This document shows positions 1 through 11,532 of a stretch of DNA of 64,000 nucleotides, one piece after another. The position numbers and the translations under genes are program-made. This stretch comes from Escherichia coli (lineage in GTDB: Bacteria; Pseudomonadota; Gammaproteobacteria; Enterobacterales; Enterobacteriaceae). How positions within the stretch are numbered: the first letter of the stretch is position 1; the number at the start of each line of letters is the position of its first letter. The notes under the pieces were generated by a model. The model saw only the letters and a list, made by a program, of their open reading frames with translations, had not been told where the DNA came from and searched no databases. The DNA lies in assembly GCF_003334305.1 (NCBI RefSeq), contig NZ_QOWS01000007.1; one strand, 5' to 3'.

Positions 1-148
1 CCCTTTTTTGGGATATACGTCATGTATATACATATTGGCCTGTTATTACTTTCCTGTCAAAGGGAGATAATGCGAAGTATTGTAGCGGGGGTATCGAAGA
101 CATTTAGCCGGAGTACCCTCCGGCTAAATAAACAAGCAACCAGAAAAA

Positions 149-862
149 TCAGTCCAGCTGTACACCCAGGCGGCGGGCGACGGCTTCATAGGCCTCGATC
201 AGGCCACCGAGGCTCTGGCGGAAACGGTCTTTGTCCATTTTCTCCAGTGTTTCTTTGTCCCACAGGCGGCTGCCGTCCGGGGAGAACTCATCGCCCAGTA
301 CCACTTCACCTTTGTACAGACCAAACTCCAGCTTGAAGTCGACCAGAATCAGACCAGCATCATCGAACAGTTTTTTCAGCACGTCGTTCGCTTTGTAGGT
401 CAGCTCTTTCATACGCGCCAGGTTCTCTTTGCTCACCCAGCCAAAGGTTTCGCAGTAAGATTCGTTGACCATCGGATCGTGCATGGCGTCGTTTTTCAGG
501 AACAGATCGAACAGCGGCGGGTTCAGCTCAATACCTTCTTCGATTCCAAGACGTTTCACCAGAGAGCCAGCAGCACGGTTACGCACGACACACTCAACCG
601 GCACCATATCCAGCTTTTTCACCAGACATTCGGTATCGGAGAGCAGACGCTCCATTTGAGTCGGGATACCCGCTTCAGCCAGTTTGCTCATAATGAAGTA
701 GTTGAACTTGTTGTTCACCATACCTTTGCGATCAAACTGCTCAATGCGCGCGCCATCCCCTGCTGACGTATCATTGCGGAATTCGAGCACCAACAGGTCC
801 GGGTTTTCCGTGCTGTATACGGTTTTCGCTTTACCACGATACAACTCAGCTTGCTTTTGCAT
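149..862 (-). CDS. purC: SAICAR synthetase (phosphoribosylaminoimidazole-succinocarboxamide synthase)
   Basis: ORF 149..871 translation recognised as E. coli PurC; start trimmed to the [13 protein letters not shown] methionine (237 aa). Confidence 0.9.
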
Positions 863-914
863 CTTTATCACTCCTGGGTGTGAATTAACGTTTTAAAATC
901 TTTTGCTGTCTGGT

Positions 915-968
<54 letters not shown>

Positions 969-1015
969 CAAACAAATTTCGTGCGAATTACCGCTAAAAT
1001 CGCGTTTTCCTGCCG

Positions 1016-1031
1016 ACGCACACGTTTGCGT
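1016..1031. promoter_or_regulatory. PurR operator-like palindrome upstream of purC
   Basis: acgcacacgtttgcgt matches the PurR box consensus ACGCAAACGTTTGCGT at 15/16 positions. Confidence 0.5.
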
Positions 1032-1039
1032 ATCATATC

Positions 1040-1068
1040 AGAAAAAAGGGCCGGATGATTCCAGCCCT
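1040..1068 (-). terminator. rho-independent terminator downstream of bamC
   Basis: On the minus strand, a GC-rich hairpin (agggctgg/ccggccct) is followed by a T6 run immediately after the bamC stop. Confidence 0.5.
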
Positions 1069-1074
1069 GTATTT

Positions 1075-2109
1075 TTACTTGCTAAACGCAGCCTGGAAGA
1101 CAGCTACCAGCGCGTCGTTCTGACTCTGAGTCAGAGTATGACCTTTCGGATCGATGAACTGTAGGCTGCTGCGGTTATCTAAATCGCCAACCTGCAGTTT
1201 ATAGTCACCGGATGCTAGGCCTGGATCGCTCGCGCCCAGTTCCTGCCAGTCGCTGTCAGACAGCGGCTTATAAGTTACGGCCATGTTGCCCTGCGAACGG
1301 GTGCTGTCGGTCACTTTCATGCCCACTTTTTCCAGCGCCGCTGGCAGACGTTGCCAAACCACATTGAACGGCCCGCGTACGACCAGCATTGGTAAACCGG
1401 TGTCATCAGCTGCACTTTGTACGTCCATAGTGGTGGAGGCACGATTTTGCGCAGCGTTCGCGGCGTCAGTGGCAGATTTATCCAGACCGGCGGAAATAAC
1501 GTTCATCATCTCCGTGCTGTAACGCTGCATGGAAGCCGCGTCTGCAACCGGTTTGCCCGCCTGTTCCAGGTTCAGCAGTTTAACCGTAACCGCCTGCTGA
1601 TAACCCTGCGGCTTAACAGAGATTTGATAACGACCACGATACTGCTCGTCTTCGTCCAGACGGTTCCATTGTACCCAATCGGTGGTCAGTGTCTGACCAG
1701 CATCATCACGTTGGGTGATGGTGTAGTTTTTCGCCTGCAGCACGCTAACCACCTGCGGCCACAGAGTATTGCCACGACCATTTTCCACCAGCAATGAAGC
1801 GGTATCGCCCGTGAACTGGGTACGCGCGCCAGAAACCAGTGCCAGCGGCTGGGCTGGTGGACGAATGTCCAGCGCCTTACCGACAGCACCACTACCGTTG
1901 GTCACCGGGATTGCATAATCACCGGAGGTCACCGGCAAAATCATTCCAGCCGGGGCATGAAGCTCCGCAAGCGGTGCCGCTTCCAGGTAGGCTTCATCAC
2001 CACTGACCTGACGCTTATAGCGTGAGTCAGAACTACAGGCAGCGAGTAATAAAACAAGCGAAACACCCGCAACCTTTGCCAGGCGCGACTTTTGAACAGA
2101 GTAAGCCAT
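1075..2109 (-). CDS. bamC: outer membrane protein assembly lipoprotein BamC (NlpB)
   Basis: ORF 1075..2112; signal peptide with lipobox LLLAAC|SSD; start set at second Met ([12 protein letters not shown]), 344 aa. Confidence 0.9.
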
Positions 2110-2125
2110 CAAATCTCCCTAAACT

Positions 2126-3004
2126 TTACAGCAAACCGGCATGCTTAAGCGCCGCTCTGACCGTCTCACGACCACTGTCGGTGATTGGTGTCATTGGCAG
2201 GCGCAGCGTATCGGTCGCCACAAGACCCAGTTCCTTACATGCCCATTTCACCGGGATTGGATTGGGTTCGACAAATAGTTTGTTGTGTAATGGCATCAGA
2301 CGCTGATTAATAACGCGTGCCTCGGCAAAATGCCCTTCTGCTGCCAGTTTGCACATCTGGGCCATATCACGCGCTGCGACGTTAGCCGTAACGGAAATAA
2401 CCCCATGACCGCCCAATTGCATGAAGTCCAGCGCGCTCGCATCATCGCCGCTCAGCAGAACAAAATCATCTGAAACCAGCTCTTTGATCTGGTTTACACG
2501 CGTTAAGTTCCCTGTTGCCTCTTTGATTCCGATAATATTTTTTACTTTCGCCAGACGGCCCACCGTTTCCGGGAGCAGATCGCAGCCAGTACGGGACGGC
2601 ACATTATACAGAATTTGCGGCAGGTCAGTATGCTCAGCGATGGCTTTGAAATGCTGATACAAACCTTCTTGCGACGGACGATTGTAGTAAGGGGTTACCG
2701 TCAGGCAGCCGACGATACCACTGTCATTGAAGCGCTGCGTCAGGCTAATGGCTTCCGCAGTAGCGTTAGCGCCGGTCCCGGCAATTACCGGAATGCGCCC
2801 ATCAGCCAGCTCCAGCGTCATCATCACCACATCAGCATGTTCGTCATGATTTAAGGTAGCGGACTCGCCAGTGGTGCCAACAGAAACGATCGCCGAAGTA
2901 CCGCTGGCGACATGATAATCAATCAGTTTTTTCAAGCTAGCCCGACAGACATTACCTTTTTCATCCATCGGAGTAACAATCGCGACAATACTTCCCGTGA
3001 ACAT
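2126..3004 (-). CDS. dapA: 4-hydroxy-tetrahydrodipicolinate synthase
   Basis: ORF 2126..3022 recognised as DapA; start trimmed to [17 protein letters not shown] (292 aa). Confidence 0.93.
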
Positions 3005-3149
3005 GGGCCATCCTCTGTGCAAACAAGTGTCTCAATGGTACGTTTGGTATGGCATTAAAAGCAAGCAGACAGAACCGTTCTGATTGTTGTATGCATGTTT
3101 TTTTTATGCTTTCCTTAAGAACAACTCACCCCTTAAAGGAATAACCAGT

Positions 3150-5062: not shown

Positions 5063-7080
5063 TGGATGCCCTGCAATTATTAACCTGGTCGCTGATCCTC
5101 TATCTGTTTGCCAGTCTGGCTTCGCTGTTTTTACTCGGTCTGGACAGACTGGCTATTAAGCTTTCCGGCATCACATCGCTGGTGGGCGGCGTGATTGGCA
5201 TCATCAGCGGAATTACGCAATTACATGCTGGTGTAACTTTAGTCGCCCGTTTTGCCACCCCTTTTGACTTTGCCGATTTTACCCTGCGAATGGATAGCCT
5301 CTCGGCATTTATGGTGCTGGTTATCTCCTTGCTGGTGGTGGTTTGTTCGCTCTATTCATTGACTTATATGCGCGAATACGAGGGCAAAGGCGCGGCGGCG
5401 ATGGGCTTCTTTATGAATCTTTTCATCGCATCGATGGTTGCCCTGCTGGTGATGGACAACGCTTTTTGGTTCATCGTGCTGTTTGAAATGATGTCGCTGT
5501 CTTCCTGGTTTCTGGTCATTGCCAGGCAGGATAAAACGTCGATCAACGCTGGCATGCTCTACTTTTTTATCGCCCACGCCGGATCGGTGCTGATTATGAT
5601 CGCCTTCTTGCTGATGGGGCGCGAAAGCGGCAGCCTCGATTTTGCCAGTTTCCGCACGCTTTCACTTTCTCCGGGGCTGGCGTCGGCGGTGTTCCTGCTG
5701 GCCTTTTTCGGTTTTGGCGCGAAAGCCGGGATGATGCCGTTGCACAGCTGGTTGCCGCGCGCTCACCCTGCCGCACCATCGCACGCTTCGGCGTTGATGT
5801 CTGGCGTAATGGTCAAAATCGGTATTTTCGGCATCCTGAAAGTAGCGATGGACCTGCTGGCGCAAACGGGTTTGCCGCTGTGGTGGGGCATTCTGGTGAT
5901 GGCGATCGGCGCAATCTCCGCGCTCCTGGGCGTGCTGTATGCGCTGGCGGAACAGGATATCAAACGGCTGCTGGCCTGGAGTACCGTCGAAAACGTCGGC
6001 ATTATTTTGCTGGCAGTCGGTGTGGCGATGGTCGGTCTGTCACTGCACGACCCGCTGCTCACCGTGGTTGGACTGCTCGGCGCACTGTTTCATCTGCTCA
6101 ACCATGCGCTGTTCAAAGGGCTGCTATTTCTCGGCGCGGGCGCGATTATTTCGCGTTTGCATACCCACGACATGGAAAAAATGGGGGCACTGGCGAAACG
6201 GATGCCGTGGACAGCCGCAGCATGCCTGATTGGTTGCCTCGCGATATCAGCCATTCCTCCGCTGAATGGTTTTATCAGCGAATGGTACACCTGGCAGTCG
6301 CTGTTCTCACTAAGTCGTGTGGAAGCCGTAGCGCTACAACTTGCGGGTCCTATTGCTATGGTAATGCTGGCAGTCACTGGTGGGCTGGCAGTAATGTGCT
6401 TCGTAAAAATGTACGGTATTACTTTCTGTGGTGCGCCGCGCAGTACACACGCTGAAGAGGCACAGGAAGTGCCAAATACGATGATCGTCGCCATGCTACT
6501 GCTCGCGGCACTCTGCGTATTAATTGCGCTTAGTGCCAGTTGGCTGGCACCGAAGATAATGCATATTGCCCATGCGTTTACCAATACCCCTCCCGTCACT
6601 GTCGCCAGCGGAATAGCACTTGTACCCGGCACGTTTCATACACAGGTCACCCCCTCATTACTGTTGCTGTTACTACTGGCGATGCCTTTGCTGCCTGGCC
6701 TTTACTGGCTGTGGTGTCGTTCGCGCCGCGCAGCGTTTCGTCGCACAGGAGATGCCTGGGCATGCGGCTACGGCTGGGAAAATGCGATGGCCCCGTCAGG
6801 CAATGGCGTGATGCAGCCGCTGCGTGTGGTCTTCTCTGCGTTATTTCGTCTACGACAACAGCTCGACCCTACGCTGAGGCTAAATAAAGGTTTTGCGCAC
6901 GTCACCGCCAGGGCTCAGAGCACAGAACCCTTCTGGGATGAGCGGGTGATCCGCCCCATCGTGAGCGCCACCCAACGGCTGGCCAAAGAAATACAGCATC
7001 TGCAAAGCGGCGACTTTCGTCTCTATTGCCTGTATGTGGTCGCCGCACTGGTTGTGCTGCTAATCGCTATTGCCGTCTAA
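5062..7080 (+). CDS. hyfB: hydrogenase-4 component B, NuoL/MnhA-like membrane subunit
   Basis: 672-aa polytopic membrane ORF with the antiporter-like motif KRLLAWSTVENVG. Confidence 0.92.
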   Translation: MDALQLLTWSLILYLFASLASLFLLGLDRLAIKLSGITSLVGGVIGIISGITQLHAGVTLVARFATPFDFADFTLRMDSLSAFMVLVISLLVVVCSLYSLTYMREYEGKGAAAMGFFMNLFIASMVALLVMDNAFWFIVLFEMMSLSSWFLVIARQDKTSINAGMLYFFIAHAGSVLIMIAFLLMGRESGSLDFASFRTLSLSPGLASAVFLLAFFGFGAKAGMMPLHSWLPRAHPAAPSHASALMSGVMVKIGIFGILKVAMDLLAQTGLPLWWGILVMAIGAISALLGVLYALAEQDIKRLLAWSTVENVGIILLAVGVAMVGLSLHDPLLTVVGLLGALFHLLNHALFKGLLFLGAGAIISRLHTHDMEKMGALAKRMPWTAAACLIGCLAISAIPPLNGFISEWYTWQSLFSLSRVEAVALQLAGPIAMVMLAVTGGLAVMCFVKMYGITFCGAPRSTHAEEAQEVPNTMIVAMLLLAALCVLIALSASWLAPKIMHIAHAFTNTPPVTVASGIALVPGTFHTQVTPSLLLLLLLAMPLLPGLYWLWCRSRRAAFRRTGDAWACGYGWENAMAPSGNGVMQPLRVVFSALFRLRQQLDPTLRLNKGFAHVTARAQSTEPFWDERVIRPIVSATQRLAKEIQHLQSGDFRLYCLYVVAALVVLLIAIAV

Positions 7081-7090
7081 GGAAATCACC

Positions 7091-8038
7091 ATGAGACAAA
7101 CTCTTTGCGACGGATATCTGGTTATTTTTGCGTTAGCACAGGCCGTGATTCTGCTGATGCTAACCCCACTTTTTACGGGTATTTCCCGGCAGATACGCGC
7201 GCGTATGCACTCCCGCCGCGGGCCGGGGATCTGGCAGGATTATCGCGATATCCACAAACTGTTTAAACGCCAGGAAGTTGCGCCGACATCTTCAGGTCTG
7301 ATGTTCCGCCTGATGCCGTGGGTATTAATCAGCAGCATGCTGGTGCTGGCGATGGCCTTACCACTGTTTATTACCGTTTCCCCTTTTGCGGGCGGCGGCG
7401 ATCTGATCACCCTTATCTATCTTCTTGCCCTGTTTCGTTTTTTCTTTGCTCTTTCCGGGCTGGATACCGGAAGTCCGTTTGCGGGAGTCGGTGCCAGTCG
7501 CGAGTTGACGCTCGGCATTCTGGTCGAACCAATGCTTATTCTCTCACTGCTGGTATTGGCGCTGATAGCAGGTTCCACGCATATCGAGATGATCAGCAAT
7601 ACGCTGGCGATGGGCTGGAACTCGCCGCTAACCACCGTACTGGCGTTACTGGCCTGTGGTTTTGCCTGCTTCATTGAGATGGGAAAAATTCCCTTTGATG
7701 TTGCTGAAGCAGAACAGGAATTACAGGAAGGCCCGCTGACCGAATATTCCGGTGCCGGGCTGGCGCTAGCGAAATGGGGGCTGGGGCTGAAACAGGTCGT
7801 GATGGCATCACTGTTTGTGGCCCTGTTTCTGTCCTTTGGGCGCGCGCAAGAACTTTCTCTCGCCTGCCTGCTGACTTCACTTGTCGTTACGCTGCTCAAG
7901 GTTTTGCTGATTTTTGTACTGGCCTCAATCGCGGAAAACACGCTGGCACGCGGGCGTTTTTTACTCATTCACCATGTGACCTGGCTTGGCTTCAGCCTTG
8001 CTGCGCTTGCATGGGTCTTCTGGTTAACCGGTCTGTAA
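7091..8038 (+). CDS. hyfC: hydrogenase-4 component C, NuoH-like membrane subunit
   Basis: ORF 7070..8038; start set at MRQTLCDGYLVIF after AAGGA (315 aa). Confidence 0.9.
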   Translation: MRQTLCDGYLVIFALAQAVILLMLTPLFTGISRQIRARMHSRRGPGIWQDYRDIHKLFKRQEVAPTSSGLMFRLMPWVLISSMLVLAMALPLFITVSPFAGGGDLITLIYLLALFRFFFALSGLDTGSPFAGVGASRELTLGILVEPMLILSLLVLALIAGSTHIEMISNTLAMGWNSPLTTVLALLACGFACFIEMGKIPFDVAEAEQELQEGPLTEYSGAGLALAKWGLGLKQVVMASLFVALFLSFGRAQELSLACLLTSLVVTLLKVLLIFVLASIAENTLARGRFLLIHHVTWLGFSLAALAWVFWLTGL

Positions 8039-8054
8039 GGAGCACTGACGGAAT

Positions 8055-9285
8055 ATGGAAAATCTTGCTCTGACGACGTTAATGCTGCCTTTTATCGGCG
8101 CACTGGTCGTTTCGTTTTCGCCACAACGTCGGGCCGCCGAATGGGGGTTTTGTTCGCCGCACTGACCACGCTGTGCATGTTGTCGCTGATCTCCGCGTTT
8201 TATCAGGCCGATAAAGTTGCCGTCACGTTGACGTTGGTCAACGTGGGGGATGTGGCATTGTTTGGCCTGGTCATTGATCGCGTGAGTACGCTGATTCTGT
8301 TTGTGGTGGTGTTTCTCGGTTTGCTGGTCACGATCTACTCCACGGGTTATCTGACGGATAAAAATCGCGAACACCCGCATAACGGCACGAATCGTTATTA
8401 CGCATTTTTGCTGGTGTTTATCGGCGCGATGGCGGGACTGGTACTCTCCTCGACGCTGCTCGGTCAGTTGTTGTTTTTTGAAATTACGGGCGGCTGCTCC
8501 TGGGCGTTGATCAGTTATTACCAGAGCGATAAAGCGCAGCGTTCAGCACTAAAAGCGTTGCTTATCACCCATATCGGTTCGTTGGGGTTGTATCTTGCCG
8601 CCGCCACGCTGTTTTTGCAGACCGGAACGTTTGTGCTTAGCGCGATGAGCGAGTTACATGGCGACGCACGTTATCTGGTTTATGGCGGCATCCTGTTTGC
8701 CGCGTGGGGGAAATCGGCCCAGCTACCGATGCAAGCGTGGCTACCGGACGCAATGGAAGCGCCAACACCGATCAGCGCCTATCTCCACGCCGCATCGATG
8801 GTGAAAGTGGGCGGCTGGCACTGGAGGGCAGCATCGCCTACATCGTCAACCACGCGTTCGCTAAAAGCCTGTTTTTCCTTGTAGCAGGTGCGCTGAGTTA
8901 CAGCTGCGGCACGCGCTTATTGCCGCGTCTGCGTGGCGTATTGCACACCCTGCCGTTGCCAGGCGTGGGTTTCTGCGTGGCAGCGCTGGCGATTACCGGT
9001 GTGCCGCCGTTCAACGGCTTCTTCAGTAAATTCCCGCTGTTTGCCGCCGGTTTTGCGTTGTCAGTGGAGTACTGGATCCTGCTGCCCGCCATGATTCTGC
9101 TGATGATTGAATCGGTCGCCAGTTTCGCCTGGTTTATTCGCTGGTTTGGTCGCGTTGTGCCTGGCAAACCGAGCGAGGCCGTCGCCGATGCCGCACCGCT
9201 GCCAGGGTCAATGCGCCTGGTGTTGATTGTACTGATTGTGATGTCGCTGATTTCCAGCGTAATCGCCGCGACCTGGTTGCAGTAA
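8055..9285 (+). pseudogene. hyfD: hydrogenase-4 component D (NuoM/N-like membrane subunit), disrupted by a frameshift and an internal deletion
   Basis: Coding signal is split over three frames: 8055..8165 (MENLALTTLMLPFIGALVVSF..., TGA after a G5 run), 8141..8884, and 8704..9285. The region holding the KRLLAxS(T/S)VEN(V/M)G motif present in HyfB and HyfF is missing. Confidence 0.75.
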
Positions 9286-9296
9286 GGAGATGATGA

Positions 9297-9947
9297 ATGA
9301 CCGGTTCTATGATCGTAAATAATCTGGCGGGACTGATGATGCTGACATCGCTGTTTGTGATTAGCGTCAAAAGCTATCGCCTGTCATGCGGATTTTACGC
9401 CTGCCAGTCGCTGGTGCTGGTGTCTATTTTCGCCACTCTCTCGTGCCTGTTCGCCGCAGAGCAACTGCTGATCTGGTCCGCCAGCGCCTTTATCACCAAA
9501 GTGCTGCTGGTACCGTTAATCATGACTTACGCTGCACGAAATATTCCCCAGAACATCCCGGAAAAAGCGTTATTCGGTCCGGCAATGATGGCACTGCTCG
9601 CGGCGTTAATTGTCCTGCTTTGCGCATTTGTCGTTCAGCCCGTGAAGCTACCGATGGCTACCGGGCTGAAACCGGCGCTGGCGGTAGCGTTAGGTCATTT
9701 TCTGCTTGGCCTGCTGTGCATTGTCAGCCAGCGCAATATCCTGCGGCAAATTTTTGGTTACTGCCTGATGGAAAACGGCTCCCATCTGGTGCTGGCGCTT
9801 CTTGCCTGGCGAGCACCGGAACTGGTGGAAATAGGTATCGCTACCGACGCCATCTTCGCCGTCATTGTGATGGTGTTACTGGCAAGAAAAATATGGCGTA
9901 CCCACGGCACGCTGGACGTGAACAACTTGACCGCGCTGAAGGGATAA
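9297..9947 (+). CDS. hyfE: hydrogenase-4 component E, small membrane subunit
   Basis: 216-aa hydrophobic ORF at the expected position and length. Confidence 0.9.
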
Positions 9948-9951
9948 TGAG

Positions 9952-11532
9952 ATGAGTTATTCTGTGATGTTCGCTTTACTCCTGCTCACGCCGCTGCTTT
10001 TTTCGCTGCTCTGTTTTGCCTGCCGGAAACGGGGGCTCTCTGCGACTTGTACGGTGACTGTATTACATAGCTTAGGGATCACACTGCTGCTGATTCTGGC
10101 ACTCTGGGTGGTCCAAACTGCCGCTGATGCAGGAGAAATATTCGCTGCGGGACTGTGGCTTCATATTGATGGTCTGGGCGGTTTGTTCCTCGCCATTCTT
10201 GGTGTGATTGGCTTTCTCACCGGTGTTTACTCGATTGGCTACATGCGTCATGAAGTGGCACACGGCGAGCTTTCACCCGTTACACTGTGCGATTACTACG
10301 GTTTCTTCCATCTGTTTTTGTTCACCATGCTGCTGGTTGTTACCAGCAATAACCTGATTGTGATGTGGGCGGCGATCGAAGCCACCACCTTAAGCTCGGC
10401 GTTTCTGGTAGGCATTTACGGTCAGCGTTCATCGCTGGAATCAGCATGGAAGTACATCATTATTTGTACTGTTGGTGTCGCTTTTGGTCTGTTCGGTACC
10501 GTGCTGGTATACGCCAACGCCGCCAGCGTTATGCCGCAGGCAGAAATGGCGATATTCTGGAGCGAGGTTCTTAAGCAATCGTCCTTGCTTGACCCAACAT
10601 TAATGCTGTTGGCCTTTGTGTTTGTGCTAATTGGCTTTGGTACCAAAACCGGGCTATTTCCCATGCACGCCTGGCTGCCGGATGCTCACAGTGAAGCGCC
10701 GAGTCCGGTCAGCGCCCTGCTCTCCGCCGTATTGCTGAACTGCGCGCTGTTGGTGCTGATTCGCTATTACATCATTATTTGCCAAGCCATCGGCAGCGAT
10801 TTCCCCAACCGGTTGTTGCTCATCTTCGGCATGTTGTCGGTTGCCGTGGCGGCATTTTTCATTCTGGTACAGCGGGACATTAAGCGTCTGCTGGCGTACT
10901 CCAGCGTGGAGAACATGGGGCTGGTCGCGGTGGCGCTAGGCATTGGCGGGCCGCTGGGAATTTTTGCCGCGCTGCTGCACATCTTAAACCACAGTCTGGC
11001 AAAAACGCTGCTGTTCTGCGGTTCCGGCAATGTACTGCTCAAGTACGGCACGCGCGATCTCAACGTCGTCTGTGGGATGCTCAAAATCATGCCATTTACC
11101 GCCGTGCTGTTTGGCGGCGGTGCGCTGGCGCTGGCAGGGATGCCGCCCTACAACATTTTTCTTAGCGAATTTATGACCATTACCGCCGGACTGGCACGTA
11201 ATCACCTGCTGATTATCGTCCTGCTGTTATTGCTGTTAACGCTGGTGCTGGCGGGCCTGGTACGGATGGCAGCGCGGGTGTTAATGGCGAAACCGCCGCA
11301 GGCCGTTAACCGGGGTGATCTCGGCTGGTTGACCACCTCGCCAATGGTGATTCTGCTGGTCATGATGCTGGCGATGGGAACGCATATTCCACAACCTGTC
11401 ATCAGGATCCTGGCGGGCGCTTCCACTATAGTCCTCTCAGGGACGCACGACCTGCCTGCACAACGTAGCACCTGGCATGATTTTTTGCCTTCAGGCACCG
11501 CATCTGTTTCGGAGAAACACAGTGAACGTTAA
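9952..11532 (+). CDS. hyfF: hydrogenase-4 component F, NuoN/M-like membrane subunit
   Basis: 526-aa polytopic ORF with motif [13 protein letters not shown]. Confidence 0.9.

Follow-up and report, generated by a model that had tools for sequence, protein, structure and literature searches.

HyfD is a NuoL/MrpA-like, antiporter-type membrane subunit of hydrogenase-4 (Hyd-4), or formate hydrogenlyase-2 (FHL-2). The intact protein aligns over about 435-465 residues with MrpA (7qru_A), NuoL (7z7r_L) and MbhH (6cfw_H), at E-values between 1e-47 and 1e-38, and all three carry the block, running from after the lysine of MVKxG to before the NHAxxK helix, that is missing from the allele described here. 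Previous work bears on this subunit in several ways. First, a ΔhyfDEF mutant of Pectobacterium atrosepticum retained full FHL-2 H2 production, with a slight gain in H2 and a higher level of HyfG protein, and its authors concluded that neither biosynthesis nor activity requires HyfD, HyfE or HyfF (PMC7384014). Second, some taxa have hyf-type operons that are naturally devoid of hyfD (PMC7654741). Third, Escherichia coli K-12, whose hyfD is intact, gave no detectable Hyd-4 H2 when the operon was driven from the hyc or the T5 promoter and HyfG processing was engineered (PMC7654741). Fourth, a study of the E. coli pangenome published in 2026 (2377 genomes) placed hyfD with the metabolic genes that most often occur as pseudogenes, localised the diversity within FHL to the HyfD subunit, and speculated on environment-specific selection (PMC13322260).

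The locus analysed here lies in a stretch of 64,000 nucleotides of E. coli DNA (contig NZ_QOWS01000007.1), which we call the window. Like the P. atrosepticum mutant and the natural hyfD-less operons, it appears to be a hyf-type locus without a functional HyfD. It differs from the mutant in keeping hyfE, hyfF and a remnant of hyfD, and also in its host, since the activity of E. coli Hyd-4 is itself doubtful, unlike that of the active P. atrosepticum FHL-2. The hyfD of K-12 sits at the same hyfC-hyfE locus and is about 98.8% identical in nucleotides over the retained parts of the window gene. The window allele departs from it by one G at codon ~31, by 208 bp (aa ~253-322), by its division into three frames, and by fragments that score below the family cutoff. 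We hold with high confidence that this is a genuine inherited hyfD pseudogene, whose two independent inactivating lesions are common and segregate in E. coli, and whose phenotypic cost is likely to be small.

The window gene occupies the orthologous hyfD position, between hyfC and hyfE of the hyfABCDEFGHIJR-focB operon, as judged from the open reading frames (ORFs) and from the annotation of strain H15. All other genes of the operon (hyfA, B, C, E, F, G, H, I, J, hyfR and focB) are intact ORFs in the window. Translation of the 1231 nt between hyfC and hyfE (8055-9285) gave no frame that reads through, and the single continuous ORF of about 479 codons typical of HyfD, 1440 nt when intact, is lacking. 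The original prediction, made from the letters of the window, had described a hyfD fragmented into three frames between intact neighbours, with an ATG at 8055 preceded by a ribosome-binding site, a TGA at about 8163, and 1231 bp in place of the roughly 1440 bp expected for a protein of 479 residues. The translations, the ORF list and the length of the intact gene agree with this description (Table 1), and the start at 8055 is also the one annotated by PGAP in H15. From this ATG, the first remnant encodes MENLALTTLMLPFIGALVVSFSPQRRAAEWG and then runs out of frame to the TGA at 8163-8165. The ATG of the second remnant abuts the run of five G, and the third, taken as the ORF 8704-9285, contains LALEGSIAYIVNHAFAKSL.

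Table 1. Features of the hyfD locus in window coordinates
Feature	Start	End	Strand	Description and basis
hyfC	7091	8038	+	Intact upstream neighbour, 315 aa; ORF in the window and hyfC annotation in H15
Shine-Dalgarno-like TAAGGAG	8037	8043	+	11 nt before the native hyfD ATG at 8055; read from the sequence
hyfD remnant 1, native frame	8055	8165	+	36 codons; HyfD residues 1-31, then out of frame; translation
hyfD remnant 2, second frame	8141	8884	+	HyfD residues ~31-252 and an out-of-frame tail of ~23 aa past the junction, then stop
G5 homopolymer	8143	8147	+	G6 (hyfD nt 84-89) in the intact gene; 1-bp loss, frameshift at codon ~31; alignment
208-bp deletion junction	8810	8813	+	hyfD nt 758-965 gone between 8810 and 8811; alignment
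hyfD remnant 3, third frame	8811	9285	+	HyfD residues 323-479; ends at the native TAA; mechanical ORF 8704-9285
SNP 8820	8820	8820	+	A in 11/11 deletion carriers, G in 10/10 non-carriers; 10 nt from the junction
hyfE	9297	9947	+	Intact downstream neighbour, 216 aa; ORF in the window and H15 annotation

The indels were mapped on the intact, K-12-like hyfD of strain CM5 (1440 nt, 479 aa, WP_000429104.1) and on three other alleles. The reference is one continuous ORF, and the window gene differs from it by exactly two indels. One is the loss of a G from a run of six, as anticipated from the five-G run. The other is a deletion of 208 bp; a second frame change had rightly been suspected in this part of the gene, although it falls between 8810 and 8811 and not near 8815, as first placed. 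The G loss shifts the frame by -1 and the deletion, being 3x69+1 nt long, shifts it by -1 again, which therefore leaves the remnants in three frames. GCG is found at both deletion endpoints, a microhomology of 3 nt (8811-8813 in the window) that makes the breakpoint ambiguous by as much. A search for longer direct repeats at these endpoints found none, and the 6-mers that it returned lie away from them. The G6 to G5 loss probably stems from replication slippage. For the missing 208 bp, the likely cause is an illegitimate deletion mediated by the 3-nt microhomology. The gene has the features of a unitary pseudogene: it is homologous to hyfD along its retained length, its ORF is disrupted by lesions, and these lesions are heritable and common to independent genomes.

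The deletion takes away about 69-70 codons (aa ~253-322), encoding GVYIFARAIIDGGNIPHVIGGVGMVMALVTILYGFLMYLPQQDMKRLLAWSTITQLGWMFFGLSLSIFGS. The block begins directly after the conserved HAASMVKVG and stops just before the NHAFAKSL helix; the conserved helix KRLLAWSTITQLG falls inside it, with the motif at residue 297 of intact HyfD. The paralogues encoded in the window retain the equivalent motif, in HyfB as KRLLAWSTVENVG at residue 301 and in HyfF at residue 311, and the KRLLAWST helix of the lost block is common to HyfB, HyfF and MrpA. The comparison with HyfB and HyfF had already led to the proposal that about 70 residues including the KRLLA motif are absent, and the alignment bears this out. 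The window allele hence lacks the contiguous core of NuoL/MrpA-type proteins, with its K(R)xLA(W/Y/F)S(T/S) helix between the MVKxG and NHAxxK helices. The same gap is seen in the scores against the NCBIfam equivalog model of hydrogenase 4 subunit D (NF005097), for which the curated cutoff is 430 bits. Intact K-12-like HyfD scores 810.9 bits over profile positions 1-480, while the window fragments reach 22.3 bits (8055-8165, positions 1-32), 383.9 bits (8141-8884, positions 31-256) and 255.9 bits (8704-9285, positions 324-480). None attains the cutoff and positions 257-323 are missing. The second lesion both shifts the frame again and removes some 70 codons of the conserved transmembrane core. 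The window allele cannot encode a full-length HyfD and, because of this loss and of the frameshifts, none of its fragments is predicted to be functional.

How widespread these lesions are was assessed in 5426 complete E. coli genomes, using short lesion queries in which every 28-nt seed was forced to span the lesion. The hyfC-hyfE region is covered at 80% or more in 4290 of these genomes, and 4295 have any match to it. The remaining 1131, about a fifth of the genomes, show no match at all to the region 7800-9500 of the window and thus lack the hyf locus. The 208-bp segment of intact hyfD is present in 3369 genomes, about 920 have the flanks without the segment, and 860 have the exact deletion junction (44-mer). 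All 60 junction rows among the matches listed are annotated as a pseudogene, 'hydrogenase 4 subunit D'. The G5 allele (49-mer) was found in 1103 genomes and the G6 allele (48-mer) in 2848, the latter including the K-12 derivatives NEB10-beta and JM83. Roughly a third of the hyf-bearing complete genomes therefore carry at least one of the two lesions that kill hyfD. Among the sampled matches, the 208-bp deletion accompanies G5 in 28 of 60 rows and G6 in 13 of 60. Extrapolating these fractions gives about 515 and 617 carriers, which overshoots the total of 860-921, and we take from them only that the split is roughly half and half, i.e., that roughly half of the deletion carriers have G5.

In the annotation, a missing gene name proved a good proxy for the 208-bp deletion (60/60 junction rows listed, and all the region rows matched in one piece). 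The converse, taking the name hyfD as a sign of an intact gene, was rejected, because alleles with G5 only are named hyfD and yet flagged as pseudogenes. We also discarded, as a proxy for the G run, the division of the junction 44-mer matches into exact ones (469) and ones with a single mismatch (391), because the SNP at 8799 does not track the run in the haplotype panel.

This panel comprises the window and 20 genomes (21 sequences), aligned over the window-equivalent positions 7300-9760 (~2.4 kb); H15, which has G5 and the 208-bp deletion (Δ208), was left out of the alignment. All four combinations of G5 or G6 with deletion or no deletion were found in it. G6 and the 208-bp segment are present in K-12-like CM5, O111, O157 and 33-6; G5 is the only one of these lesions in HS, a BL21 derivative, 2013C-3033 and strain 127; Δ208 is the only one in SCU-308, O178:H19, WCHEC035148 and ETEC-2264; and both occur in the window, 120899, 2011C-4315, E21845 and O103 WL1467. 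A third hyfD lesion, not in the window, is a 1-bp deletion at ~8487 (Δ8487), outside any homopolymer. It accompanies G5 in 90-3040 and UTAK-1, and G5 and Δ208 in MS 145-7 and C5. HS has, besides G5, a 38-bp insertion at window-equivalent ~9041 that no other panel member shares.

The distribution of these alleles gives some clues on their origin. The complete linkage of A8820 with the deletion across the panel suggests that Δ208 arose once. G5 always lies on the local haplotype 8082A/8161A, and the G5-type 48-mer is matched exactly by only 5 of the 2848 G6 genomes, which points to one main origin of G5. To produce the mosaic of lesion combinations, homologous recombination is needed within the 670 bp between both sites. 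Recombination between lesions is also implied by Δ8487, since this lesion outside homopolymers is common to carriers and non-carriers of Δ208. Of 2461 aligned positions, only 2, the G run among them, separate 120899 (G5) from O178:H19 2012C-4431 (G6), and the run must therefore have slipped one or more times on a haplotype that is otherwise fixed. Homologous recombination and rare slippage may thus have shuffled G5 and Δ208 into all four combinations, with the alleles spreading by descent and recombination. Both lesions are old as well as common in E. coli, and the strain of the window has both. HS and the BL21 derivatives share with the window the G6 to G5 frameshift and the 8082A/8161A haplotype. 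Unlike the window, they keep the 208-bp segment; HS additionally has a broken hyfB and the BL21 derivative a broken hyfC, two genes that are intact in the window.

The lesions of hyfD are not the only ones in this operon. A 1-bp deletion in hyfB (window-equivalent 5652, TTTCCGC to TTTCGC) frameshifts the gene in 8 of the 14 panel genomes compared. The corresponding 43-mer occurs in 1264 of the 5426 complete genomes, a frequency comparable to those of the hyfD lesions, while the hyfB of the window is intact. Stops or frameshifts also affect hyfE and hyfF in several panel strains. This doesn't mean that the operon has long been abandoned. Over the equivalents of window positions 5121-11169 in a small, non-random panel of 15 sequences, pN/pS was 0.10 for hyfD, 0.12 for hyfE, 0.18 for hyfF, 0.22 for hyfC and 0.25 for hyfB. 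In this small panel, the search for relaxed constraint found no signal of long-term neutral evolution, and the value of hyfD is not above those of its neighbours. The low pN/pS implies that most of the diversity accrued under purifying selection and that the lesions are young relative to it, which suggests that purifying selection still acted on the operon in the rather recent past. With these values, and with the other hyf genes of the window intact, the operon does not resemble DNA that was abandoned long ago, and neutral decay is a candidate explanation at most. As far as sequence comparison can tell, hyf in E. coli is an eroding operon. Our allele frequencies fit and extend the published evidence that E. 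coli hydrogenase-4 is cryptic and eroding.

What the loss of hyfD would do to the cell is probably little. It had been proposed that a broken HyfD would likely inactivate hydrogenase-4; this now looks weak, by analogy with the ΔhyfDEF mutant of P. atrosepticum, which keeps its H2 production, and with K-12, whose Hyd-4 yields no H2 despite an intact hyfD. A small effect on H2 metabolism is expected either because the operon is already silent or because an FHL-1-like core (HyfA, B, C, G, H and I) is independent of HyfD. Data from other strains and species would thus point to a low cost, with the E. coli hyf poorly functional or non-functional and decaying, and HyfD dispensable where FHL-2 is active. 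The premature stop at 8163 may, in addition, lower the expression of hyfE-focB through polarity.

An alternative to decay is that the removal of HyfD was selected for, either because it leaves an FHL-1-like core, because it increases the expression of the downstream hyfG, or because it drops a membrane subunit that is costly or leaky. Selection of this kind would account for the frequent hits to hyfD next to the otherwise intact operon of this strain. No fewer than three distinct lesions of hyfD (G5, Δ8487 and Δ208) are common, every other hyf gene of the window is intact, and certain taxa naturally lack hyfD in their hyf-type operons (PMC7654741). The slight gain in H2 and the higher HyfG protein of the P. 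atrosepticum ΔhyfDEF mutant (PMC7384014) and the environment-specific selection speculated upon in the pangenome paper (PMC13322260) go in the same direction. We nevertheless find adaptive trimming unlikely, because hyfB, a core membrane subunit that is essential by analogy with HycC, is hit about as often as hyfD. The breakage of hyfC, hyfE and hyfF in various strains makes a pattern that fits general decay better than targeted remodelling, and H2 from K-12 Hyd-4 went undetected even when the operon was overexpressed (PMC7654741). We also doubt strongly that natural isolates like the window strain make a 'mini Hyd-4' that resembles FHL-1 and couples energy differently, an idea that stems from the retention of the catalytic genes alongside three common, independent hyfD lesions.

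The near-identity of 120899 and O178:H19, which differ at the G run, could also be read as phase variation, the run being a reversible on/off contingency switch for hyfD. This is one pair, and the reading is very improbable on several grounds. A run of 5-6 nt is short for high-frequency switching. G5 is tied to one local haplotype, with hardly any G6 genome matching its 48-mer. Finally, the 'ON' state of O178:H19 would be pointless, as the 208-bp deletion is still present there. Nor is it credible, save at a very small probability, that slippage at the G run or separately translated fragments still give a working HyfD. It is true that G5 puts the ATG at 8141 in frame at the run, so that an N-terminally truncated HyfD without residues 1-30 could in principle be made where the 208 bp are retained. 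However, there is no evident Shine-Dalgarno sequence upstream of 8141, and PGAP calls all the G5 alleles examined frameshifted. A G6 run is found in 2848 genomes and the intact examples have one continuous ORF, contrary to what is expected of programmed frameshifting, and the 208-bp deletion, with its ~70 core codons and its frame change, is beyond what slippage could compensate.

There remains the error that the original prediction had itself raised, a homopolymer miscall at the G run together with a collapsed or misassembled 208-bp segment. Under-calling of homopolymers is a known error mode, yet such an artefact is excluded because the junction and G5 occur identically in 860 and 1103 independently assembled complete genomes, from many laboratories and platforms, with the deletion linked to A8820 and found on several diverged haplotypes. 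The comparison with H15 (NZ_CP010178.1) leads to the same conclusion. In H15, the 1231-nt feature has the locus tag RG53_RS12505 and the PGAP label 'hydrogenase 4 subunit D, frameshifted'. It occupies unchanged coordinates with respect to the neighbouring genes, and H15 and the window do not differ at any base over 7800-9500. Window positions 1-25000 differ from H15 2409178-2434177 at 4 sites (1216, 11150, 18602 and 24417). The window is thus a distinct sequence, from a strain very closely related to H15, and yet both carry the two lesions. The split hyfD is a real inherited allele. It is not specific to this strain, as a reading of the window by itself could have implied, since its lesions segregate commonly in E. 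coli and have already been annotated by PGAP.

In this sense the inherited pseudogene is an ordinary allele, known already from the RefSeq annotation and from the pangenome-level report. For annotation, the value of the present analysis is that a split hyfD can be taken as a true allele and not as an assembly error. The allele-level picture of hyfD lesions across the population is a mildly useful by-product. Strains like that of the window, where hyfD alone is broken and the eleven other hyf genes are intact, are natural ΔhyfD backgrounds, and could be used to ask whether E. coli Hyd-4 is active and whether HyfD matters.

We also observed other indels in the vicinity of hyfD. In O157 644-PT8, a deletion of 234 bp (window-equivalent ~7807) removes the 3' end of hyfC, which PGAP reports as 'incomplete; missing C-terminus', and hyfD is intact. 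Strain 33-6 has 6 extra bp, in frame, at ~7337 of hyfC. At ~11121 of hyfF, another in-frame indel gives several strains, among them 2011C-4315, E21845, O103 WL1467 and C5, 6 bp more than the window.
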